Below are positions 13,914 through 47,185 of a stretch of DNA of 64,000 nucleotides, one piece after another; the first letter of the stretch is position 1; each line of letters opens with the position of its first letter. Both the position numbers and the translations under genes were made by a program. The DNA lies in the NCBI GenBank assembly GCA_965237715.1, contig CBDEGM010000003.1:1746375-1810374 (forward strand), read 5' to 3'. Origin of the DNA: Acidobacteriota bacterium (GTDB lineage Bacteria; Acidobacteriota; UBA6911; RPQK01; CBDEGM01). Under the pieces are notes generated by a model. That model was not told the DNA's origin and ran no database searches. It was given only the letters and a program-made list of their open reading frames with translations.

Positions 13914-14810
13914 ATGCAAGAGCGTGCCTTTGGGAACTACCTGAGCTATCTTCGCGTTGAAAAGGGCTTGGCTGCCAATACAGTCGACGCGTATGAACGG
14001 GATACGCGGAGGTTTCTGTCATTCCTGCAACGCGAAGGCTGGATTCTGGAGAAGGTAGGCAAGGACGAACTACTGCATTATCTGCAACATCTTTACGAAG
14101 ACCTTTCCCCGCGGACGATTGTCCGAACCCTCGCCAGCTTGCGCTCATTCTACCGATTTCTTCTTCTGGACGGGTATTTGACAAAAGACCCATCGGAGAC
14201 CCTGGACTCTCCCAGGACCTGGCGGACCTTGCCTCAGTTTTTGACCCAGGAGGAAGTCGAGCAGCTGCTCGAGCAGCCGGATCCAAAAACCCCTCATGGC
14301 CTTCGGAATCGAGCCATGCTTGAGACCCTTTACGCGACGGGTCTGCGCGTGAGCGAACTGGTGCACCTCAGAAGTGATGAGGTCAGTCTGGAGGCCGGTT
14401 TCCTGAGAACGCTTGGCAAGGGAAACAGGGAACGGATTGTTCCCATCGGAGATTCCGCTGTAGGTCGGATCCGGCGCTACCTTGCGGAGGCCAGGTCGTG
14501 CTTCCTGCGCAGGCGCCCCCCAAGCCCTTTCCTCTTCCTCACCCAGAGAGGGGGAGCCATGAGCCGTCAGTATTTCTGGACGATCGTGAGTCAGTACGGC
14601 GAGAGGGCCGGGATTGAAAAGAAACTCAGCCCCCACGTCCTTCGACACAGCTTCGCCACACATCTGCTGGATCATGGAGCGGACCTGCGCGCAGTCCAGA
14701 TGATGCTTGGCCATGCCGACATATCGACTACTCAGATCTACACTCATGTGAGCCGAGAACGTCTCAAGAAGATCTATGACAAATACCACCCAAGGGCACT
14801 TGGGGAATGA
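13914..14810 (+). CDS. xerD: Tyrosine recombinase XerD-like (XerC/D family)
   Basis: Phage-integrase fold with the catalytic C-terminus HxLRHSFATHLL...Y. Confidence 0.75.
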   Translation: MQERAFGNYLSYLRVEKGLAANTVDAYERDTRRFLSFLQREGWILEKVGKDELLHYLQHLYEDLSPRTIVRTLASLRSFYRFLLLDGYLTKDPSETLDSPRTWRTLPQFLTQEEVEQLLEQPDPKTPHGLRNRAMLETLYATGLRVSELVHLRSDEVSLEAGFLRTLGKGNRERIVPIGDSAVGRIRRYLAEARSCFLRRRPPSPFLFLTQRGGAMSRQYFWTIVSQYGERAGIEKKLSPHVLRHSFATHLLDHGADLRAVQMMLGHADISTTQIYTHVSRERLKKIYDKYHPRALGE

Positions 14811-14868
14811 CGGGGACCGGCTGACCGGCCGAGAACGAACAACTGACAATGAGGCTTGCTCGAAAGGG

Positions 14869-15696
14869 GGTTCTGGTGCAGATAGGATTGTCGGAGCGAT
14901 AAGGCCAGGAGTGCGCCCCGGCGATGCGGCCTATGTTGCCATGACGTGACGCCAGATCACCACGGGATTCGGCTGCCATGGGATCGGAATTGAGAACTGG
15001 CGTTTGTGAATCTTCTGCGCCAGCTCGATGCCGATAATGACACGTCGCGCATTGTAGAACGTCTTGAATCCCAACATGGGGCGCAATCGCCCCTTCACCC
15101 GGCGGTGGTCCTGCTCCACAACGTTGTTCAGGTATTGACAGCAACGAATCTTCACCGGGTTCCGCCCCCGGAAGTTGAACTCCCCGTTCATTCCCATGTG
15201 CCGCAGGGCGCTATGGCTCGGCCGGTGGCCATCCAGAGTGATGCTGTGTGGCTCCCGATGATGCTTCAGCGCCTTGCGAAAGAAGGCCTTCGCCGCTGCG
15301 ATGCCACGTGCCCGACTGAGAAAGAACTCCACAGTGTTGCCCTGTCCGTCCACGGCGCGGTACAGATACATCAACTGGCCCCGAATCTTGATAAACGTTT
15401 CATCAACCCGCCAGCTCCCACCCACCGGTCGTTCGAATCGGCTCCAACGCCTTTCGCAGGTTTCGGCATAGCGAACGACCCACCGCAAGATCGTGGTATG
15501 CGAAATCGGTAAACCCCGCTCACCTAAAATCTCGACCAGGTCCCGGTAACTCAGTTTGAAGCGGAAATACCAGCGAAGGCAGAGAAGAATGATGTCGTCT
15601 TCGAACCAACGTCCGGCAAATAGAGGATTCCGTTCCGTTTTACGATGCGCCATATCTCATTATCGCCAATCCCCGTTGGCTGTCTGCACCAGAACC
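14869..15696 (-). mobile_element. IS6-family IS (828 bp), terminal IRs GGTTCTGGTGCAGA, no TSD
   Basis: IRs at 14869-14882 and 15683-15696 flank the transposase. Confidence 0.8.
14931..15653 (-). CDS. IS6-family (IS26-like) transposase
   Basis: 240 aa; RWYFRFKLSYRDLVEILGERG...WRVDETFIKIRG...YLYRAVD. Confidence 0.85.
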   Translation of the reverse strand: MAHRKTERNPLFAGRWFEDDIILLCLRWYFRFKLSYRDLVEILGERGLPISHTTILRWVVRYAETCERRWSRFERPVGGSWRVDETFIKIRGQLMYLYRAVDGQGNTVEFFLSRARGIAAAKAFFRKALKHHREPHSITLDGHRPSHSALRHMGMNGEFNFRGRNPVKIRCCQYLNNVVEQDHRRVKGRLRPMLGFKTFYNARRVIIGIELAQKIHKRQFSIPIPWQPNPVVIWRHVMAT

Positions 15697-19058: not shown

Positions 19059-19261
19059 CCCCGGGTCCCGTAAGGTAAAAATATTCGGTCGGGCAGCGGA
19101 TCCTTAGGATAGAAGGGCTCATGGGCGTGCGAGCATCGGAATCTCAGGCGATTTCCGTTGAGAAACCAGCTTTTGGAAACGGGCTCCCGGTGTGAGGTCG
19201 TCGCTCCGGCACAGCGGTGCTGACTCGACCTTCTCCCCAGTCTTATGGAGTGTATCCGAAT

Positions 19262-19603
19262 TCAAGCAGCGTCTCGATAGTAGTATCGAAGCAAGCCAAC
19301 GAGCCTGGGACGGCAACTTAATTCGCCGTCCTTGCGACCCACTTCATCTCCCGCATCAATGATTCGGTTCGCGAGTCCCTGATGATTCCGTTCGTGGTGA
19401 AAGTGCTCTCCGAACTCTCTCAAGGCCCGACGCAATGACGCTTCACCAAAGAAGATCATACGGTTGAGACATTCAGATTTCAGGGAGCGCATGAAGCGTT
19501 CCAGATGAGCATTGAGATTAGGACTCTTGGGAGGTAAGACTACCGCCTCGATGGAGGCTGCCCCAAACTCAGTTGAAAGTGAAGGGCGGTTCAGGTTGAG
19601 CAC
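19262..19603 (-). pseudogene. C-terminal part of the IS481-like transposase (separated from its N-terminus by the IS256-like insertion)
   Basis: Identical to the last 113 aa of the 359-aa transposase. Confidence 0.7.
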
Positions 19604-20987
19604 GATCTTAAGCCACCTTTCGTTTGGCGTCCATAGAAACCTCGTCTCTGAGTTTGGCTTTCAGCATCCAGAGGTCCTGGTAGCCCTGGATGCGCCGGAA
19701 GTTCTTCTCCGTCTCCAGGAAGGCTGAGGCGGCCCAGCGCAGCACCATCTGGCTATCTTTCCAGCGGCTCACTCGGCGGGTCCGCATCCTCACGCCAGAG
19801 TGAGGGCTTTCAATCAGGTTGGTGCTGGCCAGACACAAGCGCAGGGAGGAAGACAACTCGAGTCGATTGATGGTGAAGGTCTCTTCCAGACCTTCTCGCA
19901 GGCTAGCTGCCGCATCGGGATGCAGCCCTTCGAGCCACTCCGCCTGCTTTCTGAGCCGAACCCTCCCTTCTTCCCAGGGCAGCCGATAAGCAGCCTGCAT
20001 CACTGACTTGACTTGCTCGGCCAGATCGTCCGGCAATCGATCGCACACGTTGCGAATCTTATGACGACGACATCTCTGCACCGGACTGCCCTTGCCAAAG
20101 ACCTTGTCAATGGCACATCGCAGGGCCCTGGAGCCGTCAATCACAAACAGATAGCGTCGCCCGGAATCCAGGCCTCGCTCCACCAGGTCTTCCAGCAAGG
20201 AGGTAGCGGTGGCGGCGTTTTCACTGGCCCCTTCCCGCAGCCCCAGCACGTGCTTTTGGCCCTCCGAGTCCACGCCGGCGGCACAGATCACGTGGTGCTC
20301 GCCAAAGACCAGGCCGTCGATGTAGATGATCAGAAACTCAACGTCATCAAAGTGTCGCTCGGCCAGCTGCTCCAGCTGCTGGCCGCTCTGCTCAATGAAC
20401 TGACGGCTCACGGACGATTTGCTGACTCCCACCGTGTCGGCCATCTGGGGGATCACGCGGCTGTAGTGGCGCGTGGAAACGTTGCACGTCAAGATCTCCA
20501 GCATGCGGCTGCCCAGCTCCCCGTTACGGTTGATCGCCTCATAGGCGGGGATCTCCACCTCCCCGCCTCGACCTTGGCCTTTCTTGCGCAGCCGTGGCTT
20601 TCGAACCCGCACTTGCCGCTCCGAAAGTCTGACTCGCCCTGGCTGAGTGCCGTACCAAACGACCTGCTTGCCTGGGCGCCCTTGTTGCTTTTCGCCGGCG
20701 ACACTTCGGGCAGAAAGCTGCAAGACCGCTTCCATGCTCGCTCGCCCCAGGATGTCGATCAACTCGTCAATGGCCATCCGGGGGGCTTCGATCAGCTCCA
20801 CCATCGGGAGCAACAGTTGCCCGTTCTGGGCCAGATAATCAGCCAGCCCCTGACTGTTCTTCCGGGTGACAATTCGATATGATTTCTTCATGGCTGTTCC
20901 TCCTTAAAAGGTTGTTGACCAACCCGATTCTAACGAGTCGGTCGGACGAACCGCCTCTCAACTTTCAACTAAACCCGGGACAGTCTC
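19554..20987 (-). mobile_element. IS256/ISLre2-like IS (1434 bp), roughly 38-bp IRs, 8-bp TSD CCTCGATG
   Basis: TSD at 19546-19553 and 20988-20995; the uninterrupted IS481-like sequence carries a single CCTCGATG. Confidence 0.8.
19608..20891 (-). CDS. Mutator-type (IS256/ISLre2 family) transposase
   Basis: 427 aa; DGSRALRCAIDKVFG...VQRCRRHKIRNV motif. Confidence 0.8.
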   Translation of the reverse strand: MKKSYRIVTRKNSQGLADYLAQNGQLLLPMVELIEAPRMAIDELIDILGRASMEAVLQLSARSVAGEKQQGRPGKQVVWYGTQPGRVRLSERQVRVRKPRLRKKGQGRGGEVEIPAYEAINRNGELGSRMLEILTCNVSTRHYSRVIPQMADTVGVSKSSVSRQFIEQSGQQLEQLAERHFDDVEFLIIYIDGLVFGEHHVICAAGVDSEGQKHVLGLREGASENAATATSLLEDLVERGLDSGRRYLFVIDGSRALRCAIDKVFGKGSPVQRCRRHKIRNVCDRLPDDLAEQVKSVMQAAYRLPWEEGRVRLRKQAEWLEGLHPDAAASLREGLEETFTINRLELSSSLRLCLASTNLIESPHSGVRMRTRRVSRWKDSQMVLRWAASAFLETEKNFRRIQGYQDLWMLKAKLRDEVSMDAKRKVA

Positions 20988-21782
20988 CCTCGATGTCGCT
21001 GGACTTCAAGATCTGACGCAACGGCAAGTGCTTCGTGTCACGGTCAAGGATGACGTGGGCCGAGCTGCGGAAAAAACCGTCGACACAGCCGGTCAGGTTC
21101 CTTCCGAGTTGCTGCATCCATTCGGAGTTGGGGTGAGGCGTCGCACCCGCGATTTCAATGCGCCGCGTCTTTAGATGCATCACCACAAGGACGTAGAACG
21201 TGACCAGTCCTGACCGAGTCCAGACCTCAACGGTCGTAAAGTCGGCGGCTGCGATCGAATCCCAGTGAGCAGCAAGGAAGGTACGCCAGGCCGTGCGGCT
21301 CTCGCGCTCTGGAGCTGGCTCGATGCCGTGGGCTTTGAGAATGTTGCCAACCGTGGTGTCAGAGATGTGGAAGCCCAGGTTGGCTAAAGCACCCTGGATA
21401 CGGTCATAGCCCCAGCTAGGATTCTCCTGAGCCATGCGCAGAGCCAAGTCCACAATCTGTGTCGAATGCGTGGCCGGCCAACGGATTGCCTCTTGTCTGA
21501 GTGATCCCACTTGCGAGCGATAAGCTCTCGATGCCAGCGCAGAAGCGTGTCGGGCCTGACGATCTTGGCCAGTTTGCCGAGGCTTTTTCGGCCCAGCACC
21601 TTGCCCTTGACGGCCAAGCGTCGACGCTGGCCGTCGTTGAGCAGAATGCGGCGCTTGCCGAGCTTTTCTCTGAGTACCTGATTCTCAGTCAAAAGATACT
21701 CGATCGCGTCCTGCTGGTCTCTGTTGATCCAACCGGCCAAGATCAGGAGCAGCAGCTGCCAGGGCCTGAGCACGAAGTTCAT
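20965..21782 (-). pseudogene. N-terminal two-thirds of the IS481-like transposase, with two frameshifts
   Basis: ORFs 20965-21510 and 21384-21782; the [22 protein letters not shown] segment marks the shifted frame. Confidence 0.6.
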
Positions 21783-21927
21783 GGTTGATTAGATGCTCAC
21801 GTCAAGTGCTCAGACGCAAAGGGGGAAAACATTGGGGCTCAACCAAGGCTGACTTCTGTTTGCCGTGACGGTTACAACTTGTTGCACAATAGAGACTTGT
21901 GGGTCGGCTGAATATTTTGACCTTACG

Positions 21928-27793: not shown

Positions 27794-28605
27794 GGCACTG
27801 TCAGAGGAAAGTCGCAAGGACTGAGTTCTCCACCGACGACAGGGAATTAGGCCGCCCCGAGCTGACGCCACTCGGCGAGTGCGGCGGCGCGGTTGAGCTT
27901 GAAATTGTCTCGTGAGCAGAGGTGTCGTGCCTGGTTGAAGTGATTGTAAACGGAAGAATGAACGGTGGCGAATTTCTGGAGGCTTTGCATCCGCCTGAAA
28001 CGGAGCATGGCGTGTTCTCGTCGCCGGAACGGCAGGTGTGAATTCTCCGCACGATTGTTCAGCCAGCGGCCGGCTTGTTGCAGACCGGATCCGCCCAGTT
28101 CGCGCAACGCCGCTCGGTAAGACCTCAGCCGATCAGTGATGATCGCATCCGGCCTGCCGTAGCGCTTCATTAGTTTCCTGAGGAATTTCAAAGCGGCTTC
28201 GCGGTCTCTCTTCTTCGAGACAAAGGCCTCAAGCACCTCGCCTTCCTGGTCGACGGCTCGCCAAAGGTAATGGCCTTCGCCGTTGATCTTCACGAACATC
28301 TCATCGAGGTGCCACCGCCAACCCGAAAACGCGCGCATTCGATCCATCCGCTTCTTGCGGATCTCGGCGGCGAAGATCGGGCCGAACCGGTTCCACCAGA
28401 ACCGGATCGTCTCGTGGCTCACCTCGATCCCACGCTCGTGAAGAAGGTCCTCGACATTGCGTAGCGACAGTGGGAAGCGAACATACATCATCACTGCCAG
28501 GCGGATGATCTCGGGCGAGGTCTTGAAATAGCGAAAGGGGTTCTTCATCCGAAGACACTACAAGGCGCATCTCGCCGACTCAAGCCAGTTTCCTCTGACA
28601 ATGCC
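27794..28605 (-). mobile_element. IS6-family element 2 (812 bp), IRs GGCACTGTCAGAGGAAA / GGCATTGTCAGAGGAAA
   Basis: IRs read directly at both ends. Confidence 0.75.
27847..28548 (-). CDS. IS6-family transposase (distinct from 14931-15653)
   Basis: 233 aa; IS6 pattern SLRNVEDLLHERG...HLDEMFVKING. Confidence 0.85.
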   Translation of the reverse strand: MKNPFRYFKTSPEIIRLAVMMYVRFPLSLRNVEDLLHERGIEVSHETIRFWWNRFGPIFAAEIRKKRMDRMRAFSGWRWHLDEMFVKINGEGHYLWRAVDQEGEVLEAFVSKKRDREAALKFLRKLMKRYGRPDAIITDRLRSYRAALRELGGSGLQQAGRWLNNRAENSHLPFRRREHAMLRFRRMQSLQKFATVHSSVYNHFNQARHLCSRDNFKLNRAAALAEWRQLGAA

Positions 28606-28687
28606 GAGTTTGGCGAATGCATATGGTCCGAGGCGATCGTCGTGAGCATAAAGCCCCCTAAGCCTGCTGGATGCTTCGCGAAACGAT

Positions 28688-28813
28688 ACTGTCAAGTTAA
28701 CCGAAATGCACTCTTTTTCGATGCGAAATCAATTCTAGCCAGCATGGAAAATCAACGACTTAGCTAGTACGTCAATCAGGGTTAACCTCCAGAAAATCAG
28801 TTAACTTGACAGT
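28688..28813. mobile_element. MITE copy a (126 bp; TIR ACTGTCAAGTTAAC, variant-1 interior)
   Basis: Perfect 14-bp TIRs. Confidence 0.6.
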
Positions 28814-29337
28814 GCCGTATCGAGCAATACCTGGATTGCCGGCCGGTCCCCCGGCCGGTCGCCGACATGGTGTAGCCGAACGACTCCCTCCGGGTCGACG
28901 AGCACGTCGCCTCCCAGTTGGCTGACATCGCCACTCGGCATCCGGAGACGCCGCCCCCGTAACAGCAGCTTCATATAGGCCCACCAAGACGGCGGTCCGA
29001 AAATACTCCACCAGTGCCCCCGGTTCATGCCATAGGCCTGATACACCTCCAGCGCACTGTCGATCAGTATCGGCCACTCCAGACGCGTGTCCCGCACATA
29101 GGCCTCGGCGACCGGGCCGCTCTGGAAGGTGACGACGACGACCTGGACATCGAGTTTCTTCAACTCCTTCTTGTGCTGTCGCAACTGCGACAGGTGTTCC
29201 CGGCACGGCAGTCAGGCTAGGTGCCGGTGAAACACCAGCAGTAGCCAGTGTCCGGAGTAGTCCGCGAGCTGGTGCCAGCGGCCTGTGAACTCGGGTAAAC
29301 GGAACCCGACGGCAGGTTGTCCGCGTTTAGTTTCCAT
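28801..29337 (-). CDS. Thioredoxin-fold TlpA/ResA-like redoxin with an in-frame TGA (29212-29214) at the CxxC first-Cys position (U-L-P-C). Candidate selenoprotein, copy A; the last codons and stop lie inside the MITE TIR
   Basis: ORFs 29212-29412 and 28801-29184 are in the same frame, separated only by TGA; alignment to TlpA (F.LP...G..L.D..G..LLV.F....U.PCR.E.P.L; WPILID; YQAYGM; VLVDPEGVV..HVG); hairpin CUGUCGC-AGUU-GCGACAG 21 nt after the UGA. Confidence 0.6.
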
Positions 29338-29474: not shown

Positions 29475-30336
29475 CGCGTTGTTGCACAATTCCGGCCGGG
29501 TCACGGACCGATCCCAGTCCTGTTTGAATGCTATCGAATTCGCACTGACTCAGGCATGCCCCGGCTTGACATACGATTCAGCACCTCACATTTGATGATG
29601 GCCTCGACCCGTTGATTGTCGAATCGTCGGGCCGACAGCTTAGGCCCAAACAACGTCTTGAACCTCGACATCGCATTCTCTGCAAGGCTTTGCCTGGCGC
29701 AACCACTGGAGATGCGCCATTCATATCGACCGAGTCTCCTTATTTCTCGTAGATGGGCATCCCGCATTGCCCGCCAGGCAGGCGGGTCCACACTTTCACT
29801 CAGCCGCGCACTGCGTCGCGGAGGGATGGTGGCGACAGCCTCCCGCTCGAGTATCGATTGATAACAGGCCCTCGTGTCATAGGCCCCGTCGCCCGAGACT
29901 TGAACGATGCGACCCGGAATCTGATCCAGCAGGGCCGGCAACAGACGACAGTCGTGGACCCGGCTCGGTGTAACCTCCACCGCCACAATCTCTTTCGTCC
30001 TCTCATCGACACCCAGGTGCAGCTTGCGCCAGGCTCTGCGCCGACCATGTCGATGCTTTCGGACGTGCCATTCACCCGAGCCGTACACTCTCAGGCCCGT
30101 CGCATCCACAACCACGTGCCGAGGCCGACTGCTTGGGCTAACAGTCAAGAACGTCGCCAAGGAACTCTGTCGTCTACTGAGAGTGCTGTAGTCTGGAACT
30201 GGCAGATCGAGTCTGAGCAACTCCAGGAGCGAAGAAACGAAGCCCTGCGTCGACCGAAGGCTAAGATGAAACACCGACTTCAATATCAGCGCACACTGAA
30301 TGGCCGTGTCGGAGTAAACCTTCGGAGCGCCGGGGC
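29475..30336 (-). mobile_element. IS903-group (IS5 family) element, truncated at its transposase-N-terminal end by IS481-like copy 7
   Basis: IR CGCGTTGTTGCACAATTCCGG at 29475; sequence near-identical to the full copy 39048-40111. Confidence 0.75.
29531..30283 (-). pseudogene. IS903-group transposase lacking about 65 N-terminal aa
   Basis: 250 aa aligning to residues 66-315 of the 315-aa transposase. Confidence 0.7.
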
Positions 30337-31555
30337 CGTAAGGTAAAAATATTCGGTCGGGCAGCGGATCCTTAGGATAGAAGGGCTCATGGGCGTGCGA
30401 GCATCGGAATCTCAGGCGATTTCCGTTGAGAAACCAGCTTTTGGAAACGGGCTCCCGGTGTGAGGTCGTCGCTCCGGCACAGCGGTGCTGACTCGACCTT
30501 CTCCCCAGTCTTATGGAGTGTATCCGAATTCAAGCAGCGTCTCGATAGTAGTATCGAAGCAAGCCACCGAGCCTGGGACGGCAACTTAATTCGCCGTCCT
30601 TGCGACCAACTTCATCTCCCGCATCAATGATTCGGTTCGCGAGTCCCTGATGATTCCGTTCGTGGTGAAAGTGCTCTCCGAACTCTCTCAAGGCCCGACG
30701 CAATGACGCTTCACCAAAGAAGATCATACGGTTGAGACATTCAGATTTCAGGGAGCGCATGAAGCGTTCCAGATGAGCATTGAGATTAGGACTCTTGGGA
30801 GGTAAGACTACCGCCTCGATGTCGCTGGACTTCAAGATCTGACGCAACGGCAAGTGCTTCGTGTCACGGTCAAGGATGACGTGGGCCGAGCTGCGGAAAA
30901 AGCCGTCGACACAGCCGGTCAGGTTCCTTCCGAGTTGCTGCATCCATTCGGAGTTGGGGTGAGGCGTCGCACCCGCGATTTCAATGCGCCGCGTCTTTAG
31001 ATGCATCACCACAAGGACGTAGAACGTGACCAGTCCTGACCGAGTCCAGACCTCAACGGTCGTAAAGTCGGCGGCTGCGATCGAATCCCAGTGAGCAGCA
31101 AGGAAGGTACGCCAGGCCGTGCGGCTCTCGCGCTCTGGAGCTGGCTCGATGCCGTGGGCTTTGAGAATGTTGCCAACCGTGGTGTCAGAAATGTGGAAGC
31201 CCAGGTTGGCTAAAGCACCCTGGATACGGTCATAGCCCCAGCTAGGATTCTCCTGAGCCATGCGCAGAGCCAAGTCCACAATCTGTTGTCGAATGCGTGG
31301 CCGGCCAACGGATTGCCTCTTGTCTGAGTGATCCCACTTGCGAGCGATAAGCTCTCGATGCCAGCGCAGAAGCGTGTCGGGCCTGACGATCTTGGCCAGT
31401 TTGCCGAGGCTTTTTCGGCCCAGCACCTTGCCCTTGACGGCCAAGCGTCGACGCTGGCCGTCGTTGAGCAGAATGCGGCGCTTGCCGAGCTTTTCTCTGA
31501 GTACCTGATTCTCAGTCAAAAGATACTCGATCGCGTCCTGCTGGTCTCTGTTGAT
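30337..31555 (-). mobile_element. IS481-like copy 7 (minus), 5' end removed by MITE copy c
   Basis: Right-end IR at 30337; homology stops at 31555, where the MITE TIR begins. Confidence 0.75.
30530..31519 (-). CDS. IS481-like transposase (ORF starts about 25 aa into the protein)
   Basis: 329 aa identical to the 359-aa family. Confidence 0.7.
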   Translation of the reverse strand: MTENQVLREKLGKRRILLNDGQRRRLAVKGKVLGRKSLGKLAKIVRPDTLLRWHRELIARKWDHSDKRQSVGRPRIRQQIVDLALRMAQENPSWGYDRIQGALANLGFHISDTTVGNILKAHGIEPAPERESRTAWRTFLAAHWDSIAAADFTTVEVWTRSGLVTFYVLVVMHLKTRRIEIAGATPHPNSEWMQQLGRNLTGCVDGFFRSSAHVILDRDTKHLPLRQILKSSDIEAVVLPPKSPNLNAHLERFMRSLKSECLNRMIFFGEASLRRALREFGEHFHHERNHQGLANRIIDAGDEVGRKDGELSCRPRLGGLLRYYYRDAA

Positions 31556-31556
31556 G

Positions 31557-31684
31557 GTACTGTCAAGTTAAGTGGAATTCTCGGGTTTTGGAGGCGAAAT
31601 CGGTCGTCGGTCGAACGTAGAATCAACAATTTAGGGACTTGCCAAGGCGCTGATTAGGCACCAAACCGGTTAACTTGACAGTAC
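31557..31684. mobile_element. MITE copy c (128 bp, TA-flanked, variant-2 interior)
   Basis: TIRs GTACTGTCAAGTTAAG / GTTAACTTGACAGTAC. Confidence 0.6.
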
Positions 31685-31898
31685 CCTAAAAAGGGCTTGA
31701 GAGACGGGCGTGTGAAAACGGTACGCCAACGCCACGCAGAAGCGTCTCTGCCAACCGAAGCCCCTCACCAGAGCATCGGCAAGCGCCCGGGATTTGGGCG
31801 GAAAACGGGGACGAGATCCACAAAAAACGTAGCAATATCAGAGATATAAGGGCGTGGCGGTGGGCGCAGTCTGGAGCGAACCCGTCTCTGGCCCGATT

Positions 31899-32100: not shown

Positions 32101-34165
32101 GTGCGCGCGCACCGGATGCGCTGCGAATCGCAGCATCGATCCGGACAACGGGGTTCCTGCCGGCGGATGGGGTTCGCGCCGAACTACGGTGTCTTTCGCG
32201 GGTCGAGCAGCCCTATCTCAGTGGATGTCGATGAGGTAGTGATATCGGCGCACGAGACAGCGGCTGTCGTCAAGGCTCATCAGGTTGCGGAGGAATGCGT
32301 TGCAACACTTAGCTCGAAGGGTCGCCAACATCAGTGTGCCGCAGCAAGCGGCGTGAGAGATGGGAGTAGGCCTCCCGCAACCGGCTTGCAGGAGCAGGTT
32401 GCAAACCACCGTAAGTGGCTGTGGTTAAAAGCCGCGGTCGTGAGCGTTACGGAAAAGGTGCTCTAGAAGCATCAGGTGTGGATCAGGAAGACGAACACAA
32501 GTGAACCACCGTTCAAGTGCCGAAAGGACGAGATGGTGTCGAAACCGGGGAGTTGGTGTTGCCCCGGGACGAATCTGGCGGAAACCTGTCTACTGGTCAG
32601 GTGGCACCCGGCATAGAGGTGGCGTGAGCTTGATCTGGGCTCTCATGTTGAACTGCGGGAACCTGGAGCAACGATGCTAAGAGAAAGGCACAAGCAGAGA
32701 ACCTGCGAGGCCGACAGTATCGAAGCGTTGCCCAGGGGCGGACAAGCTCGTAGTAGCGATGAGGCTGCCGTAATGGCAGCGGAGCGAAGGGGCTTGGTCA
32801 CTCGGCTACAGACAAGCGGCCAACTGCTAGGCAGGAGGAGCCCTTGAAAGTAGCAAAGCCATTTGAGGTTTCTAAGAAGCTGGCAGGGCAAGCATACTTG
32901 GAGGTGAAGTCCAAAGGAGGTGCCGCAGGAGTCGATGGCGAGTCGCTTGAACTCTTCGAGCACAACTTGAAGAACAACCTCTATCGAATCTGGAACCGGC
33001 TGTGCTCCGGGAGCTATTTTCCACCACCCGTGAAAGCCGTGCCAATCCCGAAGAAATCGGGGGGCACGCGTGTTCTCGGAGTGCCTGCGGTCTCTGATCG
33101 AATCGCACAGACAGTGGTGAAGCAAGCCCTGGAGCCGATACTGGAACCGGTGTTCGATGAGGATTCTTTCGGCTATCGACCGGGAAAGTCTGCCCATGAC
33201 GCGATTGCCATCACCCGGAAACGGTGTTGGCGATACGACTGGGTGGTGGAGTTCGATATCCGCGCCCTGTTCGACAACATTGACCACGAACTGCTCATGA
33301 AGGCGTTACGCCACCATTGTCAGTGTCGTTGGGTGTTGTTGTACGTGGAGCGCTGGTTGCAGGCTCCACTTGAGCAGCCCGGCGGCAGTCTACAGGCGCG
33401 CGACAAAGGCACACCGCAAGGTGGAGTTGTGAGCCCTATTCTGGCAAATCTGTTCTTGCACTACGCGTTTGACGCGTGGGTGAGACGCCAACTGCCGGGG
33501 GTTCCATTTTGTCGATACGCCGACGATGGGCTGCTGCACTGCAAGAGCCAGTCTCAGGCGGAATACGTGATGAGCCTTATCTCGGAACGCTTCCGTGAGT
33601 GTGGGTTGGAGATCCATCCCGACAAATCGTCGATCGTCTATTGCAAGGATGTGAATCGCCTGGAAGAGCATTCGCGAATCAGCTTTGATTTCCTTGGTTA
33701 CACTTTCCGTCCGCGACGGTGTGTGAACAAGAAAGGGCAGGTTCACCCGAACTTTCTTCCTGCGATCAGTATCTCCTCGAAGAAGGAGATCAATCGATGC
33801 ATGCGTAGCTGGCATGTCCAGCTCAAGAACGAGAAGACGTTGTTGGATCTGTCTCAGATGTTCAATCCGAAACTCCGTGGTTGGCAAGCCTGCTATGGTT
33901 GCTTCCACGCGTCGGCACTGCGTCAACTGTGGCGGAACTTCAACCGGTATCTTGTGCAGTGGGTGCGAAGGAAACTCAAAAGATTTTCTGGGCATCGGCA
34001 ACGGGCGAGGCGTTACCTCGACCAGATTGCCCGTGCCAATCCGCATCTATTTATTCATTGGCGTCTTGGAGTCTTTCCTTGTGGCTTGAGTGATAGGAGC
34101 CGGATGAGCTGAGAGGTTCACGTCCGGTTCTTGGAGGGGCTGGGGGTGAGACTCCCCCGGCCTAC
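32101..34165 (+). mobile_element. Group II intron (5' GUGCG; domain V at 34097-34130; ORF in domain IV)
   Basis: Domain V GAGCCGGAUGAGCUGAGAGGUUCACGUCCGGUUC with the AGC triad; the 3' boundary is approximate. Confidence 0.7.
32844..34112 (+). CDS. Group II intron reverse transcriptase/maturase
   Basis: RT domains 0-7 with YADD; maturase X domain; 422 aa. Confidence 0.9.
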   Translation: MKVAKPFEVSKKLAGQAYLEVKSKGGAAGVDGESLELFEHNLKNNLYRIWNRLCSGSYFPPPVKAVPIPKKSGGTRVLGVPAVSDRIAQTVVKQALEPILEPVFDEDSFGYRPGKSAHDAIAITRKRCWRYDWVVEFDIRALFDNIDHELLMKALRHHCQCRWVLLYVERWLQAPLEQPGGSLQARDKGTPQGGVVSPILANLFLHYAFDAWVRRQLPGVPFCRYADDGLLHCKSQSQAEYVMSLISERFRECGLEIHPDKSSIVYCKDVNRLEEHSRISFDFLGYTFRPRRCVNKKGQVHPNFLPAISISSKKEINRCMRSWHVQLKNEKTLLDLSQMFNPKLRGWQACYGCFHASALRQLWRNFNRYLVQWVRRKLKRFSGHRQRARRYLDQIARANPHLFIHWRLGVFPCGLSDRSRMS

Positions 34166-34736
34166 TCAACCATCTTCTTCAACCACAACAAGGAAACTAG
34201 TTCGCCACCTCTTCGGTACATTTGCCCCCTTGATCTCTATGATGGACCGGAACTCCCCGCCGATGCTAGCGTGCCCGCTTACGCCGATTCATGCACCAAT
34301 GCCCTTCAACTAGTGTAGCGATCGGGACCCTCATTTCACTTGCGAAAAGTTTCCCCATTTTTCAAAAAGTTCACCCGTTCCACTTGTTAATCTTCCTAAC
34401 TCAACCATGTCAATTGGTTAGCAGAATCTCACCTGAATTTTTGGGGAAACTCCTGCAAGTGGCATGTACTAAAAAATCGGGGGAAAAAAAGGGAGGAAGG
34501 GCAGAGAAATTTAGGCGGACAAGCGGCCCTGAAAATGCATTATGCCGCGCGGGAGCGCAATGTCCGGAGCGACAGCATTTTACAACAGAGCATGAGCTGG
34601 CTACAATAACGGTCCGCTGAGATGGAGGCGTAAGCTTCCCCAGAAAAGACCCCATCCAAAAGTAGAATTTTCTGGCCCAAGGACAGAAGATGGGACAGGT
34701 TTCGCAGCAGATCGGGGTGACCGAGCAGACCTACTT

Positions 34737-34788
34737 GGGGTCACCTCTGTCCAGTTGAGGCATGCCTCAACTGGACAGAGGTGACCCC
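34737..34788. repeat. 52-bp perfect palindrome (24-bp arms GGGGTCACCTCTGTCCAGTTGAGG around CATG)
   Basis: Read directly. Confidence 0.5.
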
Positions 34789-35825: not shown

Positions 35826-36362
35826 ATGGAAACTAAACGCGGACAACCTGCCGTCGGGTTCCGTTTACCCGAGTTCACAGGCCGCTGGCACCAGCTCGCG
35901 GACTACTCCGGACACTGGCTACTGCTGGTGTTTCACCGGCACCTAGCCTGACTGCCGTGCCGGGAACACCTGTCGCAGTTGCGACAGCACAAGAAGGAGT
36001 TGAAGAAACTCGATGTCCAGGTCGTCGTCGTCACCTTCCAGAGCGGCCCGGTCGCCGAGGCCTATGTGCGGGACACGCGTCTGGAGTGGCCGATACTGAT
36101 CGACAGTGCGCTGGAGGTGTATCAGGCCTATGGCATGAACCGGGGGCACTGGTGGAGTATTTTCGGACCGCCGTCTTGGTGGGCCTATATGAAGCTGCTG
36201 TTACGGGGGCGGCGTCTCCGGATGCCGAGTGGCGATGTCAGCCAACTGGGAGGCGACGTGCTCGTCGACCCGGAGGGAGTCGTTCGGCTACACCATGTCG
36301 GCGACCGGCCAGGGGACCGGCCGGCAATCCAGGTATTGCTCGATACGGCACTGTCAAGTTAA
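35826..36362 (+). CDS. TlpA-like redoxin candidate selenoprotein, copy B (TGA at 35949-35951, UxxC)
   Basis: Identical architecture to copy A; ORFs 35682-35951 and 35979-36362 in the same frame; the stop codon sits inside the MITE TIR. Confidence 0.6.
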
Positions 36363-36443
36363 CTGATTTTCTGGAGGTTACCCTGATTGACGTACTAGCT
36401 AAGTCGTTGATTTTCCATGCTGGCTAGAATTGATTTCGCATCG
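36349..36443. mobile_element. MITE copy b (variant 1), truncated by an IS903-group insertion
   Basis: One TIR plus about 80 bp of interior; the reverse complement matches copy a. Confidence 0.5.
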
Positions 36444-36825
36444 ACGCGTTGTTGCACAATTCCGGTCGGGGTCACGGACCGATCCCAGTCCTGTTTGAAT
36501 GCTATCGAATTCGCACTGACTCAGGCATGCCCCGGCTTGACATACGATTCAGCACCTCACATTTGATGATGGCCTCGACCCGTTGATTGTCGAATCGTCG
36601 GGCCGACAGCTTAGGCCCAAACAACGTCTTGAACCTCGACATCGCATTCTCTGCAAGGCTTTGCCTGGTGCAACCACTGGAGATGCGCCATTCATATCGA
36701 CCGAGTCTCCTTATTTCTCGTAGATGGGCATCCCGCATTGCCCGCCAGGCAGGCGGGTCCACACTTTCACTCAGCCGTGCACTGCGTCGCGGAGGGATGG
36801 TGGCGACAGCCTCCCGCTCGAGTTC
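36444..36825 (-). mobile_element. IS903-group fragment (IR plus the transposase C-terminal 86 codons)
   Basis: Homology to 39048-39430 stops at 36825. Confidence 0.65.
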
Positions 36826-37082: not shown

Positions 37083-38843
37083 ATGGAACATCTAGGCAAG
37101 AAGAAGGCAAAGCCGTCCTGGCAGACGGCCAAGTACGCCTTCCACCATATCATCTGGCCTCGTCGCCGGCTCCTTTTTCTAGGTCTATTCCTGATCGTCA
37201 TCAATCGAGCAGCGGGCCTGGTCTTGCCAGGTGCCAGCAAGATCCTGTTGGACAACGTTATCCCCGAGAACGACGAACAGCTGCTGTACCTGCTCTTGTC
37301 GGGTGTGACCCTGGCCATCCTGGTTCAGTCTTCCACGGCATTCTTCCTGACTCGGTTGCTGAGCGTGGAGGCCCAGCATCTGATTTCTCTCCTCCGAGCA
37401 GAGGTACAACGCCATATCCTCTACCTCCCCGTTCGGTTCTTCGACAACACCAAGTCAGGAGAGCTGGTTTCCCGCATCATGATCGACGTCGAGGGGGTCC
37501 GAAACCTGGTGGGCACAGGTTTTGTGCAAATGTTCGGGGGCGTCCTGACGGCCATCGCATCACTGGTACTTTTGTTGAAGATCAACGCCATGATGACGCT
37601 TTACACCCTGCTGCCTCTCAGCCTTTTTGGCTTGGTCTCACTGAAGGCGTTTGGTTACATTCGTCCGATTTTTGGGGAGCGGGGGAAGATCAACGCGGAG
37701 GTCACCGGGCGCCTCACAGAGTCACTGGGCGGTATTCGGGTCATCAAAGGGTTCAACGCCGAGAAGCAGGAGGTCCGGGTCTTCGAGAGGGGAGTCGATC
37801 GGATTTTCAACAACGTCAAGAAGTCCCTGACCGCTACCAGCCTGGTTACCAGCTCCTCCACCTTGCTGCTGGGTCTAGCCAGTGTCGGCATCATGGGGCT
37901 TGGGGCGTCGATGATCATGAGCGGCGACTTGAGCGTGGGCGACCTGTTTGCCTTCACCCTCTATCTGGGATTCCTGATCGCTCCTATCGTCCAGATGGGC
38001 AACATCGGGAGTCAGATCACGGAAGCCTTTGCCGGCCTCGATCGCACTGAAGAGATTCTGAGCCTGAAGCCCGAGCACGCTGAGCCGTCAAGGACTATTA
38101 CGCTGGACGAGGTGCAAGGAGATATCCGCTTCGAGGACGTCGATTTCTCCTATGAAGAGGGGAATCCGGTCCTCACGGGTATCAGCTTCGAAGCCCCAGC
38201 CGGCAGCGTCACGGCCCTGGTGGGGAGTTCCGGATCGGGGAAGACCACGATTGCCGGCCTGGCGGCTTCCTTCCTGAAACCCAACGGGGGGAAGATTCTG
38301 ATTGACGGACAAGACCTTTCCAGGGTGACGCTTGACTCTTATCGATCCAGGCTAGGCGTCGTCCTTCAGGACGATTTTCTCTACGAGGGGACGATCCGGG
38401 AAAACATCCTGTTTGCCAGGTCGGAAGCAAGCACGACGGAGCTGAGTGAATCGGTGGCCGCTGCCCATGTCAGCGAGTTCACCGATCGCTTCGACGAAGG
38501 CCTGGACACCCTCATTGGCGAACGCGGTGTGAAGCTTTCGGGCGGACAGAAGCAGCGGGTGACCATCGCTCGCGCCCTGTTAGCCGATCCACGGATCTTG
38601 ATTCTGGATGAGGCCACCTCGAACCTGGACACCGAAAGCGAGCTCTATATCCAGCAGAGTCTGGATCAGCTCCTGAAAGGCCGAACCACTTTTGTCATCG
38701 CCCACAGGCTCAGCACGATTCGGCGCGCGGACCAGATCCTGGTGGTGGAGGACGGTGAAATCGTCGAACGAGGGCGCCATGACGAGCTGATCGAAGCGAA
38801 GGGTCGATACTACCAACTCTATACCTACCAGGCCCGCATCTAA
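37083..38843 (+). CDS. ABC exporter, fused permease and ATP-binding protein (MsbA-like)
   Basis: Six-TM N-terminal half; Walker A GSSGSGKTT, LSGGQKQR, Walker B ILILDEATS. Confidence 0.8.
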   Translation: MEHLGKKKAKPSWQTAKYAFHHIIWPRRRLLFLGLFLIVINRAAGLVLPGASKILLDNVIPENDEQLLYLLLSGVTLAILVQSSTAFFLTRLLSVEAQHLISLLRAEVQRHILYLPVRFFDNTKSGELVSRIMIDVEGVRNLVGTGFVQMFGGVLTAIASLVLLLKINAMMTLYTLLPLSLFGLVSLKAFGYIRPIFGERGKINAEVTGRLTESLGGIRVIKGFNAEKQEVRVFERGVDRIFNNVKKSLTATSLVTSSSTLLLGLASVGIMGLGASMIMSGDLSVGDLFAFTLYLGFLIAPIVQMGNIGSQITEAFAGLDRTEEILSLKPEHAEPSRTITLDEVQGDIRFEDVDFSYEEGNPVLTGISFEAPAGSVTALVGSSGSGKTTIAGLAASFLKPNGGKILIDGQDLSRVTLDSYRSRLGVVLQDDFLYEGTIRENILFARSEASTTELSESVAAAHVSEFTDRFDEGLDTLIGERGVKLSGGQKQRVTIARALLADPRILILDEATSNLDTESELYIQQSLDQLLKGRTTFVIAHRLSTIRRADQILVVEDGEIVERGRHDELIEAKGRYYQLYTYQARI

Positions 38844-38866
38844 GCCGAAACTTCATTCGCAGAAGT

Positions 38867-38938
38867 AGCTTTGGCCTCCAGGCCGAAGTCTTATTCTTCT
38901 GAGTCTTTGGCTCGGACGGAGGCCTGGAGGCCAAAGCT
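38867..38938. terminator. Long inverted repeat (18-bp arms AGCTTTGGCCTCCAGGCC / GGCCTGGAGGCCAAAGCT) downstream of the ABC exporter gene
   Basis: Read directly. Confidence 0.4.
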
Positions 38939-39047
38939 AGTGCGCCTGCGAAGGCGTTTGATCAGAAGGGTGCAAGTTCCCTTCCAGGCCAACGTTACCG
39001 GCCTGAAGTCGACAGTGGTAACTGCGTTTCCGTGAGGAAAGGTGGAG

Positions 39048-40111
39048 ACGCGTTGTTGCACAATTCCGGTCGGGTCACGGACCGATCCCAGTCCTGTTTG
39101 AATGCTATCGAATTCGCACTGACTCAGGCATGCCCCGGCTTGACATACGATTCAGCACCTCACATTTGATGATGGCCTCGACCCGTTGATTGTCGAATCG
39201 TCGGGCCGACAGCTTAGGCCCAAACAACGTCTTGAACCTCGACATCGCATTCTCTGCAAGGCTTTGCCTGGTGCAACCACTGGAGATGCGCCATTCATAT
39301 CGACCGAGTCTCCTTATTTCTCGTAGATGGGCATCCCGCATTGCCCGCCAGGCAGGCGGGTCCACACTTTCACTCAGCCGCGCACTGCGTCGCGGAGGGA
39401 TGGTGGCGACAGCCTCCCGCTCGAGTATCGATTGATAACAGGCCCTCGTGTCATAGGCCCCGTCGCCCGAGACTTGAACGATGCGGCCCGGAATCTGATC
39501 CAGCAGGGCCGGCAACAGACGACAGTCGTGGACCCGTCTCGGTGGAACCTCCACCGCCACAATCTCTTTCGTCCTCTCATCGACACCCAGGTGCAGCTTG
39601 CGCCAGGCTCTGCGCCGGCCATGTCGATGCTTTCGGACGTGCCCTTCACCCGAGCCGTACACTCTCAGGCCCGTCGCATCCACAACCACGTGCCGAGGCC
39701 GACTGCTTGGGCTAACAGTCAAGAACGTCGCCAAGGAACTCTGTCGTCTACTGAGAGTGCTGTAGTCTGGAACTGGCAGATCGAGTCTGAGCAACTCCAG
39801 GAGCGAAGAAACGAAGCCCTGCGTCGACCGAAGGCTAAGATGCAACACCGACTTCAATATCAGCGCACACTGAATGGCCGTGTCGGAGTAAACCTTCGGA
39901 GCGCTGGGGCCCTTGGGCGGGTCGGCGTTCCGCCAGGCGGCAACGGCGTCCTCATCGAACCAAAAGGTCAGACGCCCCCTGGCGATCAGCGCCCGATTGT
40001 AGTCTGACCAGTTGCGTACTCGGTACCGGAACGTGTATTGATTCGGCGTCATTCCTCATGCTGGCACCCTGGCCCATCGGAGACAAGCGGACGTGCCGAA
40101 GCGATTTATGC
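39048..40111 (-). mobile_element. IS903-group (IS5 family) IS, full copy of about 1064 bp, IRs CGCGTTGTTGCA(C/T)AA
   Basis: IRs at both ends. Confidence 0.8.
39105..40052 (-). CDS. IS903-group transposase (315 aa)
   Basis: IS903-like core (VVDATGLRVYGSGEGHVRKHRHGRRRAWRKLHL), DDE, C-terminal MPESVRIR. Confidence 0.85.
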   Translation of the reverse strand: MTPNQYTFRYRVRNWSDYNRALIARGRLTFWFDEDAVAAWRNADPPKGPSAPKVYSDTAIQCALILKSVLHLSLRSTQGFVSSLLELLRLDLPVPDYSTLSRRQSSLATFLTVSPSSRPRHVVVDATGLRVYGSGEGHVRKHRHGRRRAWRKLHLGVDERTKEIVAVEVPPRRVHDCRLLPALLDQIPGRIVQVSGDGAYDTRACYQSILEREAVATIPPRRSARLSESVDPPAWRAMRDAHLREIRRLGRYEWRISSGCTRQSLAENAMSRFKTLFGPKLSARRFDNQRVEAIIKCEVLNRMSSRGMPESVRIR

Positions 40112-40202
40112 AACAACGCGTTTCGTTGTAACAAAAGCCAGCTCCGCTGATGGTCAAGCCTCCGGAGCCTTAGTCCTAGTAACAATTCCAAAAGGTACGG
40201 GG

Positions 40203-43200
40203 TCAATCTCCGGAAAATGCTTCAAGCTGGCTTGAGTTCGGATGTATCCGATCCGTGTAGAGGTGCCGTTTAAAACGATTGTCGTCAAGGCGATAGATCG
40301 CAGTGTGACGCAAGCGGCCACCAAACCCAGAGCCCACTTGAATCCCGCCGTAGGCACTCTTCTCACCAGCGATCACCCAGATTGCTGAGAGATCTTGCCG
40401 GTTGAGCATCTGCAAAAATGCGTCGCGATCGACAAGAGCCCCTGCGGGGCCAGATTCAACGACGGACGGATCATAGAATGTGCCTTGTCCATCTGAGCCG
40501 ACAAAAATCAGCGATCTCCCACTCGACAGCCGAAGTCCCATTTTCTCGGCTAGCCAGGGAGCAGGTATTTTGAATATAATCGTCTGATCGATTGAGTAGT
40601 CATAGTCGCCGCTCTCGCATGCGTAGGAGGCGATCGTTGGGCGTGTTGGCACGGCGAAGGCCTGCTGATCGTCGTGCGAACTCCACCGTCCGAATTCGCT
40701 CATTTCTGGGTGCCAAGGATATTCTCCGAGGTGAAAATACCCAGAATAAAGTTCGATCTTTGGGAATGAGCTGGGATCTGTCAGAATTTTGTCCTGGAGA
40801 CTTTTGACCATCTTAGCTTGGTCTTTGCGGCGTACGACGATGCAGGTAAGCCGAAACCACGTTTCCCGCTGAATCTCCCTCTTCCCGGCCCGCACGCCAG
40901 CACCTTTCCATGTTGAAAATCCCGAGAGGGCAAGCCATCTTCGGCCCGTCTTTGGATTACACAAATCAATCAGAGCTTTATTGTTGATGATGTCGCTGTC
41001 ACTGTCCAGCCAAGCAAGACGCTCGTGGGGATCCACCGCGCGAAGCGTAGGATTGAAAGGCACCCACCACGTTTTGCGCCACTCGGCCCAACCCTTGTAA
41101 TAGGTCTGAGTAGTCAAGAAGGACGGATCGATATCGCATAGTCCGACTTCACGGGCTCCTCGATATAGGGGTGGTTCGTCATCGTCTTGTTTCCATGGAT
41201 TGTCTAAGAAGGCAAGATTGTCCGCCATGCGGGCTACAAGTTCTTGGAGTGCAAGCCATTGGTACTTCTTGCCGATGCGTTCGATCCTGTGGCCGTTTCG
41301 GTCGTAGCCGCAGAAGTGATTGTCGAAATCACCGAAGCGTTTCGATGTCCAACCCAGTTCATGGGCTCGCTTGCAGATCCATCGACGGCCCCAATGAACG
41401 TCGAAGTGTGCGGCTCGATCCGCAAAGAGTTTGTGCCGGAAAAAGTCCTTTGCTCGAACTCGGAAGTCTTCCCATTGGTCCGACGCCATCGTCTGCTGAA
41501 GAGCCCCCTCGGCGGCGGCCAACCGCTCCGCCTCCGGACTGGACTGATGGCCGTGAACATCCTTAATTCCCTCGGTGGTGCTAACATATTCCTTAAAGGC
41601 CACAAGTTGGTCTGCGGTTGCACTGGCGACAAATTCCTGTATCCAGGTTCTGCAAATGTCGAGCGAAGTCGGTAGCGGCATTGCTCCGATTTTTGCAGGA
41701 CTCCATTTGTTCACCTTGTGATCAACTACATATCGCGCAAAGTCGCCCTCATGGACGGTGGAGAATACAATCGCGTCGCCAACGGACCCGCGCCCATGAT
41801 CCTCGGTATAGCCCTTAATCAATTCGTCCGGTACCGGTTCGATAGGCCAAGGACTTTGATATGGCGGCCGTGCAAGCGCAAGGTCGATTGAGCTATCCAG
41901 TACGCCGCAGTACGCTGCGTACTCTACAATACATCGGGCATGGTCGCGCAGAAGCGCATTCGCCGGTGGTTTCCCGTTGGCAAAGACCGTGTCGAAAACC
42001 ACCTGGGCAAGTTTGCCGAGTCCCGCTTCCCGCGTTCCTTGAAGAGCGGCGCCATAGCAAGCAGCCAACAGACGCTCAAGAACATACGGATCATTCACAC
42101 TCACAAAGTCGCCCAGTAAACGAGCGGCGAGCAAAAGCCGCCGACTCAGCACGCTAGCAAGGGCCTTGGTAGCCTTATCCCTGACCTCCCGGTGCGATGT
42201 GGCAAGGAACCAAGTGAGCATTGTCGAAGCCAAGTACGCACGATCCCCGTCTATATGCTCAAGATCACTTTGAAGCGCCCAGGAAATCAGTGTCTTGACA
42301 GGCTCATCGAAGCCACGCTCTGCCAAATAGACCGACCAGCGCGCATCGCGCTCCGGCATCGTCATTCCCATGAGCCGCTTATGGACAAAGAGTGCATTGA
42401 ATTTGTTAGACGTCTCTGTGCTGATTGCGACAAGCAGGTCGGTCAACTCGTCCGCTTGAACCAAGCCTCGAACTAGTTCGAACGTGTGACTAGTAAAGTG
42501 AGACTGCTCACGCCAAAGGAGGCTATTCAGAAAAGCGTCCCGCACTGTATACGAAGCGTCAGATCCAACATCCAATATCTCAACGCGGGTCCGTTCCGGG
42601 AGTTGAATGGTCATCGCCTCGATGATTCCGGCGCGTTCATAATTCTCCGTCCCGAAAACACACTTATGGAGAGGCTGGTCGGCTTGAAAGGAACTAGCCA
42701 CATTGTGGGTATTGAGATGGTCATCGAGCAAGTGCGACGCTATAGCATGATCGCTGAAACGCTCGAACGTGAAGCGAACCATTTCAGCAAGCGATCCATC
42801 ATCTTGCCGCAAGGGTTCGACGGTGAGAAGACCTCCGTTTTCCAGCTGCGCTAGCAGACTCTTCTCAAGGCTTCCTCTCGAGTCGAGAACCGATTCAAAC
42901 AGAGTAACTACGTCGCTTTTCGCGGCATATCCTTTGCCGGCGCCCACGAGTAATTGCGCAAAGCTGGCGATAGCCTTTGATACGATTTCCAGATGAGGGT
43001 CGAGCCTCATTCCCCGGTTCAGCGACTGAGATACAGCCTCGTTGTAGAATTTAAAGATCGATGTGACGCCGCGCAAACCTCTAGGAAATTCGGTTTTTCC
43101 CTCCTTTTCCAAGGAGTCGCAGCACATTTTCAAGAAAAGCGGATTTTCAAACTCGGGAACGAGATTAGGTGCCCCAGGTCGGACCATTCCTCGTTTGTCG

Positions 43201-45115: not shown

Positions 45116-45123
45116 TTCGGTAC

Positions 45124-45245
45124 TGTCAAGTTAACCGATTTGGTGTCTAATCAGCGCCTCGGCCACTCCCTAAGTTGTTGATTCTACATTCGACCGCCGA
45201 CCGTTTCCGCCTCCAAAACCCGAGAACTCCACTTAACTTGACAGT
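45124..45245. mobile_element. MITE copy d (122 bp, variant 2)
   Basis: TA-CTGTCAAGTTAAC...GTTAACTTGACAG-TA. Confidence 0.6.
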
Positions 45246-47058: not shown

Positions 47059-47185
47059 TTCTCTGGCGACTCTCCCTCCATCGGTAGAATCTGCTGCTTC
47101 TCCGATGGATTGGATCTCACCCGCTGCGCCTTCTCGAAAGTCACGTCTTCGGCCAGGGGGTTGTCTACGCGCTTCCCGCCCAAGG

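Follow-up and report, generated by a model that had tools for sequence, protein, structure and literature searches.

An IS256-family element inside an IS481-like copy

The stretch analyzed here (the window) comprises 64,000 nucleotides of contig CBDEGM010000003.1 from an Acidobacteriota bacterium, and it holds transposable elements of several kinds. Among them is a 1418-bp insertion sequence (IS), called IS481-like below or, after the Pfam domain of its transposase, the rve_3 element, which runs from CGTAAGG to CCTTACG, has inverted repeats of ~26 bp, and contains a single 359-aa open reading frame (ORF). Self-BLAST and alignment found seven copies in the window (c47, c50t, c51, c56, c60, c30t, and c19), the number also given in the original prediction, which had been made from the sequence alone. 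IS903-group and IS6-family elements and miniature inverted-repeat transposable elements (MITEs) are also present, and an IS256-family element lies inside c19 (Table 1).

The IS256-family element breaks c19 at 19553/19554 and 20987/20988. With the full-length element as the query, self-BLAST aligned 21927-20988 with positions 1-941 and 19553-19062 with positions 934-1418 of the 1418 bp, at 99% identity, the two arms overlapping on the full-length copy by exactly 8 nt, far above chance. The element is flanked by a perfect 8-bp target site duplication (TSD), CCTCGATG, and taking it out together with one CCTCGATG repeat leaves an uninterrupted c19. The prediction of an IS256-like element within this IS481-like copy, with a clean 8-bp TSD and an older host copy, is thus borne out by the arms, the overlap, and the duplication; its interval, 19070-21927, located the nest correctly, with the start one base off.

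IS256-family elements are marked by target duplications of 8 to 9 bp and imperfect terminal inverted repeats of ~25 to 30 bp. The element in c19 conforms in its length of ~1.4 kb, its 8-bp TSD, its imperfect ~27-bp inverted repeats (GAGGCTGCCCC.../GAGACTGTCCC...), and its Mutator-type DDE transposase, which scores over the curated cutoffs of NCBIfam IS256 NF033543 (203.5 versus 150 bits) and Pfam Transposase_mut PF00872 (111 versus 21 bits). It differs from named members only in having no name, its closest relatives being 99% identical proteins in related metagenome-assembled genomes (MAGs): the protein falls in a 176-sequence cluster at 99% identity in related assemblies, and a 93% variant is encoded on the same contig. 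Nothing about the element is unusual, and the nest is the clean landing of one IS inside another, i.e., ordinary transposon stacking.

As to the course of events, c19 was already in place, its reading frame already lost through a one-base deletion, when the IS256-family element arrived and integrated in the c19 transposase gene near codon 263. A staggered 8-bp cut typical of the family, once filled in, then produced the CCTCGATG duplication. The left end of c19 itself interrupts a gene for a serine recombinase, of which a related genome has an unbroken version (L058; handles of this form denote our sequence records from elsewhere). The window lacks the upstream half of this gene, so that the flanks of c19 are not contiguous with each other.

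Table 1. Coordinates of mobile elements and their fragments in the window
Feature	Coordinates	Strand	Remarks
c19, right-end arm (right inverted repeat side)	19069-19553	-	99% identity to c56 positions 934-1418; holds first TSD copy, 19546-19553
IS256-family element, 1434 bp	19554-20987	-	Profile match, flanks read; transposase gene 19608-20891, 427 aa
c19, left-end arm (left inverted repeat side)	20988-21927	-	98.8% identity to c56 positions 1-941; holds second TSD copy, 20988-20995, and frameshifted 5' part of transposase gene
c30t	30337-31555	-	Without first ~200 nt; intact right end adjoins IS903-C
c47	47275-48691	+	Full length; 359-aa gene 47420-48499 intact; 1-nt deletion in noncoding right part
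c50t	50710-51950	+	Without first 178 nt; -1 deletion in common with c19, private +1 insertion; most diverged
c51	51952-53369	+	Full length; intact ORF 52097-53176
c56	56049-57466	+	Full length; intact ORF 56194-57273; right end adjoins IS903 fragment E
c60	60289-61707	+	Full length; intact ORF 60435-61514; nearest to consensus (1 difference)
IS903-group copy C	29476-30336		Positions 1-861 of 1071; 99% to 62927-63788 and 39050-39911; cut by c30t right end
IS903-group fragment D	36446-36823		Positions 1-378; end adjoins truncated MITE variant 36347-36445
IS903-group copy A	39050-40120	-	Full length, 1071 bp; 315-aa transposase gene 39105-40052
IS903-group fragment E	57467-58074		Positions ~282-889; truncated at both ends
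IS903-group copy B	62718-63788	+	Full length; 315-aa gene 62786-63733
MITE m31	31556-31685		Complete, 130 bp; GGTACTGTCAAGTTAA termini; adjoins truncated end of c30t
MITE m45	45119-45248		Complete; reference "empty" MITE
MITE m47	47185-47274		First 90 nt; 100% to 45119-45208; cut by c47 left end
MITE variant copies	28685-28816 and 36347-36445		
IS6-family element b (IS6-b), 812 bp	27794-28605	-	NCBIfam IS6
Further IS6-family elements	14869-15696 and 49089-49893 (IS6-c)		NCBIfam IS6

One-sided junctions and the order of insertions

Nested transposable elements have been used as a relative clock, both for the intergenic retrotransposons of maize and for IS-in-IS nests in IS-rich bacterial genomes. 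As in those cases, an element with intact ends and a TSD inside another shows here that the host element is older. The present locus differs in that a complete nest, with both junctions and a TSD, was found for only one of the five nestings claimed, that of the IS256-family element in c19. At each of the other four the matching second junction is missing, and these are therefore not simple insertions. The one-sided junctions were checked against intact reference copies; at five further junctions an intact end is set against the interior of another element, which gives the local order of the two events, the reciprocal half being missing.

Two of these one-sided contacts involve the IS903 group. 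Intact IS481-like ends adjoin internal IS903-group sequence at 30336/30337 (c30t) and 57466/57467 (c56), and the left flank of c56, checked for the partner IS903 half, is the region upstream of a PDC-S06-type defense gene, not IS903. Insertion of IS481-like copies into IS903-group copies at 30337 and 57466 had been proposed; the junctions and the order stand, while the missing second junctions speak against simple insertion. The assignment of the host copies is straightforward, the 1071-bp element encoding a transposase that passes the NCBIfam IS5 profile NF033579 (314.7 versus 140 bits) and carries the DDE_Tnp_1_5 (PF13737) and DDE_Tnp_1 (PF01609) domains of the IS903 group of the IS5 family. 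Its ends, GCGTTGTTGCAyAAwT, resemble those of IS903. A 9-bp target duplication is expected for this group, yet neither full-length copy, A or B, has one, which we take as a sign of recombination or rearrangement after insertion and not as evidence against the family. A search for TSDs at IS903-A and -B, the three IS6 elements, and the MITEs found none; the IS256-like element alone has one.

The MITE family enters into the remaining contacts. It is a 130-bp noncoding element with 16-nt perfect termini, present in three copies in the window and also in L004 and L041, and its end motifs were observed 8 times versus 0.15 expected. The complete m31 lies flush against position ~200 of the IS481-like element in c30t at 31555/31556, the remaining 40 nt of m47 was not found at 48692 or beyond, and the end of IS903-group fragment D cuts a MITE variant at 36445/36446. 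Here too the earlier description, of a MITE truncating c30t at 31555 and of c47 inserted into a MITE at 47275, is right as to the junctions and the order, the reciprocal halves being absent.

Replicative transposition by IS26 and other IS6-family elements gives rise to adjacent deletions and inversions. The MITE recalls this system in that its ends resemble IS6-family ends, those of IS6-c (GGCATTGTCACGTTAA) matching the MITE ends GGTACTGTCAAGTTAA at 13 of 16 positions, and in that complete m31 is flush with a truncated neighbor without a TSD, as after an adjacent deletion. It differs in having no linked transposase and no 8-bp duplication, end resemblance being the link; neither such a duplication nor a reverse-complement signature was found at the MITE copies. 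Judging by its ends, the MITE may be mobilized by an IS6-type transposase. The window has three IS6-family elements, with NCBIfam IS6 scores of 197 to 220 bits versus a cutoff of 125.

Of the two elements meeting at a junction, the cut one was there first and the one with the intact end came later. Accordingly, c19 predates the IS256 element, two IS903-group copies predate c30t and c56, the MITE event followed c30t, and c47 followed m47. The relative timeline of IS activity drawn from the nestings in the original prediction is upheld in these pairwise orders, but family ages cannot be built from them: the one-sided junctions order single events.

Comparison of the IS481-like copies bears on the same question. 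They are 99.0 to 99.8% identical to one another, and private variants are present in every one. From the consensus, c60, c56, and c47 differ at 1 to 3 positions, c51 at 6, c19 at 7, and c50t at 10. Four copies (c47, c51, c56, and c60) have an intact 359-aa ORF, in line with their earlier grouping as nearly identical copies, but c51 fits that grouping poorly, with six private or rare changes, four of which are amino acid changes. For c47, c56, and c60, with intact ORFs and ends and so few differences from the consensus, it is reasonable to presume activity.

Two copies, c19 and c50t, had been assigned to one mutated lineage on the strength of a common frameshift signature. The signature is real: a one-base deletion at alignment column 469, outside any homopolymer, yields the 22-residue peptide quoted in that assignment and, of 30 copies aligned across eight genomes, is carried by c50t and c19 alone. 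In c50t a private +1 insertion 53 nt past the deletion restores the frame. The substitutions tell otherwise, however, since c19 lies nearest c30t, at 5 differences, as against 13 from c50t, and a neighbor-joining tree groups c19 with c30t and c50t with c51. Variants 823C/824T are common to c19 and c30t, and 295G/298A are common to c50t and its neighbor c51. The single shared deletion is, on these alignments, weak evidence of a common lineage.

The informative sites support mutually incompatible groupings, (c50t,c51), (c50t,c19), (c19,c30t), and (c47,c51,c30t), and these clashing variants point to gene conversion among the seven copies. For the column-469 deletion, conversion or recurrence thus has to be reckoned with: the deletion would then have spread between copies or arisen twice instead of being carried along by trans-mobilization of one defective lineage. 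The four incompatible groupings in only seven copies, the separation of c19 from c50t in the tree, and the two adjacent variants that c50t has in common with its physical neighbor all favor this. Against it, the informative sites are very few, and at one shared site, column 276, two versions of the contig disagree on the base in c50t; moreover, frameshifts common to several copies occur elsewhere, e.g., +T at column 479 in L014, L019, and L060, so that defective copies do seem to propagate. We regard conversion or recurrence as quite possible, if somewhat short of probable.

A stricter reading of the locus would take every junction as a simple nested insertion, with the IS903 group oldest, followed by the IS481-like and then the IS256-like element, the MITE contemporaneous with the IS481-like element, and c50t and c19 descended from one frameshifted master copy. 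All junction directions agree with that order, the IS903-group copies are slightly more diverged (98.5 to 99.5% identity) than the IS481-like copies, and none of 23 copies in other genomes has the nonhomopolymer column-469 deletion. Yet only the c19 nest has both junctions and a TSD, the substitutions separate c19 from c50t as described, and the proposal that the IS481-like family is younger than the IS903 group fails on two counts: intact 315-aa IS903 genes persist, and the IS903-D end cuts a MITE variant. We consider this layered chronology unlikely. Given these two observations and the fact that the IS256-like element is multicopy in relatives, the families overlap in activity and no linear chronology emerges.

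Very probably, then, the locus is a hot spot of overlapping IS activity with one clean nest and not a layered record of families. Deletions beside element ends, and homologous recombination of one near-identical copy with another, would later have reshuffled the flanks. Several points weigh against this account. Rearrangement is deduced from the missing halves, and no IS481-like copy has an empty-site reference; the rve_3 element may make no TSD at all, in which case a missing TSD is no proof of rearrangement; the junctions were read from the assembled contig; and base calls inside the repeats are uncertain, which leaves single-base lineage markers not fully reliable.

The last of these points stems from a comparison of contig versions. 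The window, with a GC content of 56.5%, matches, with the same structure, the long contig ctg495427_10.80x_l (1,403,066 bp; ENA metagenome assembly ERZ26167216), on which positions equal the window position plus ~281,318. One piece of the ENA record is identical to a part of the window, and two others differ at 13 to 14 positions over ~40 kb. The differences (window 38390-57754 versus L079 and L080) lie mostly inside IS copies, with seven in IS903-A, one in c50t, and two in IS903-E. Those in IS903-A include a 2-nt insertion in the ENA version, an indel that breaks the IS903-A gene.

The nest and the truncated junctions could in principle be artifacts, i.e., chimeric joins via near-identical repeats in an ~11x metagenome assembly. 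The contig name gives a low coverage of 10.8x, the contig versions differ mainly in repeats, seven 99%-identical copies invite misjoins, and two metagenome scans gave no match elsewhere to either the IS481/IS256 junction or the head-to-tail junction of a right with a left inverted repeat. A misjoin, however, would produce neither the perfect 8-bp TSD nor the complete inverted repeats seen at the two IS256 junctions. Each IS481-like copy also has its private variants, typical long reads, which the contig naming style implies, are far longer than the elements (1.4 kb, and 2.9 kb when nested), and similar copies, nested or truncated, are present in independent MAGs. An assembly artifact is thus very improbable.

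What may safely be taken from IS nesting of this kind is the order of two events at an intact-end junction; family ages and lineages drawn from a single indel may not.

Family, ends, and target site of the rve_3 element

The family name of the IS481-like element needs qualification. Its transposase finds its best IS family profile in IS481 NF033577, at 78.9 bits versus a cutoff of 224, a threshold that is not reached; the IS3 and IS630 profiles gave 67.9 bits versus 160 and 53.4 versus 100. In Pfam, rve_3 matched at 43 bits versus 26.5, with weak helix-turn-helix (HTH) and DDE_3 matches. Homologues number about 8,000 (at least 7,900), and those with names are called "integrase core domain-containing protein" (PGAP) or "InsO family."

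In common with the IS481 family, the element has a single ORF with an HTH region and an integrase-core (rve_3) DDE domain and is without a programmed frameshift. The ends of that family usually begin 5'-TGT, whereas those found here are of the CGTAAGG...CCTTACG type, and ends of the form CGTAnGG...CCnTACG are kept in 60 to 85% identical relatives from Planctomycetota, Eisenbacteria, and Verrucomicrobiota MAGs. For IS481EU relatives, TGT...ACA ends are described in one published account, which puts IS481 family TSDs at 2 to 15 bp, mostly 6 bp (PMC10045372, citing ISfinder). Since the score is under the cutoff, the ends differ, and no TSD of 4 bp or more was seen, "IS481-like" is a nearest-family label and not a statement of membership; the name given in the original prediction holds as the nearest family by profile and no further.

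Flanks and TSDs were surveyed in 32 copies of the element, drawn from the window and from L001-L040 and representing at least 12 genomes. None of the 32 is flanked by a repeat of ≥4 bp, and one had a 3-bp repeat; 2-bp matches numbered 8 versus 5 expected (P = 0.09). The flanks are symmetric, W-N-S-S on the left of the junction and S-S-N-W on the right, with C or G at positions -1/-2 and +1/+2 in ~30 of the 32 copies, C being preferred at the left and G at the right, and A or T at position -4 in 28. At the two insertion points in IS903 copies, compared with intact copies, a zero- or one-base duplication fits best. Rejoining the flanks of the full copies and looking for ORFs that span the join gave no information on TSD size.

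Three other readings of the ends were tried and rejected. A 2-bp CG duplication, with ends TAAGG...CCTTA, is contradicted by the intact IS903 copies, which lack CG at both insertion points. The same two points ruled out an IS630-like TA duplication in a CGTACG target, and a GGCC-type 4-bp duplication with the ends shifted one base inward fits L001 alone.

In the window, c51 lies head to tail behind c50t, a single C (51951) separating their ends, and an empty-site search covering the window and 80 loci gave one match, for c51, exactly at the right end of c50t. Several rve_3 insertions likewise adjoin sequences like the element's own end (CCCCGTAGGG, CCCGTAAGGTCAG, and CGTAGATGG, in L024, L033, L003, and the IS903 target at 39320-39330). 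These insertions, including c51 behind c50t, hint at end-targeted insertion.

It is conceivable, though doubtful, that the rve_3 element represents a large uncurated IS clade with CGTAnGG termini, no detectable TSD, palindromic W-N-S-S/S-S-N-W sites, frequent insertion adjacent to sequences like its own ends, and recent movement among Acidobacteriota species and into Verrucomicrobiota of the same habitat.

The surrounding island and its counterparts in other genomes

The 45-kb region from 19 to 64 kb holds the seven rve_3 copies, two full-length IS903-group copies and three fragments, two IS6 elements (of three in the window), three MITE copies plus two variants, and one group II intron, interspersed with defense genes (Avs2 and PDC-S06). 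Of the bases in 19069-63788, 38% belong to IS or MITE sequence. Five rve_3 copies (c47, c50t, c51, c56, and c60) lie in the same orientation within 14.4 kb (47275-61707), with unique DNA between them, and the inverted copies c19 and c30t lie 16 to 28 kb upstream of these. The xerD gene (TIGR02225, 380 bits) stops 58 bp before the IS6 element at 14869-15696, marking the start of the variable region (window 13914-15696).

The Avs2 gene (40203-44702, minus strand) encodes 1499 aa and scored 1705 bits with PADLOC and 940.6 bits with NCBIfam, just under the cutoff of 1000. An antiphage defense gene for a PDC-S06/AAA_13 ATPase (53493-55778, minus strand) is bracketed by the directly oriented c51 and c56 in a composite-transposon-like arrangement, both outer flanks of which begin or end with GC. 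Exact-protein lookups with the Avs2-like ORF, a 331-aa ORF, c60, and IS903-B returned no record, the likely cause being start calls or base differences between versions.

The group II intron (~32360-34170, plus strand; Rfam group-II-D1D4-2, 112 bits; Intron_gpII, 59.6 bits) carries an intact 422-aa reverse transcriptase/maturase gene (32844-34112; TIGR04416, 395 bits), and a perfect 52-bp palindrome (34737-34788) lies ~570 bp downstream of it. A 620-bp inverted duplication (28718-29337 and 35826-36444), 99.7% identical and carrying an AhpC-TSA_2-like gene, brackets IS903-C, c30t, m31, and the intron, a segment that could invert.

In a species-representative collection, the closest genomes are long-contig Acidobacteriota MAGs. 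The window has an OMP gene and the IS cluster in common with OZ252113.1 at 1.47-1.58 Mb, where orthologous empty sites may exist. Seven other Acidobacteriota MAGs of that collection carry the rve_3 element at 98 to 99% DNA identity (among L001-L019, L036, and L058), and L041, L052, L069, and L014 have nested or truncated copies of their own. At ~80 to 83% identity it recurs in Opitutales and "Ca. Moanabacter" MAGs (Verrucomicrobiota; L030, L037, and L074). IS6-b and the MITE are common to some of the rve_3-bearing MAGs, and a 203-bp IS903-group fragment was seen only in L003. An identical IS6-b transposase is encoded on at least 21 contigs (L081-L083), one of them circular, 116,911 bp long, and carrying Thoeris-like, SIR2-HerA-like, and other defense genes. 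The sharing of elements among MAGs suggests recent horizontal spread within one habitat.

Stacking of this sort is well known, and the elements, though without names of their own, belong to known kinds, with the rve_3 element a possible exception. That element, outside the curated IS models and showing no TSD in the copies surveyed, is the one point perhaps of interest to transposon specialists. As for the organism, members of at least five mobile-element families are reshaping a defense-gene island in this uncultured Acidobacteriota lineage.

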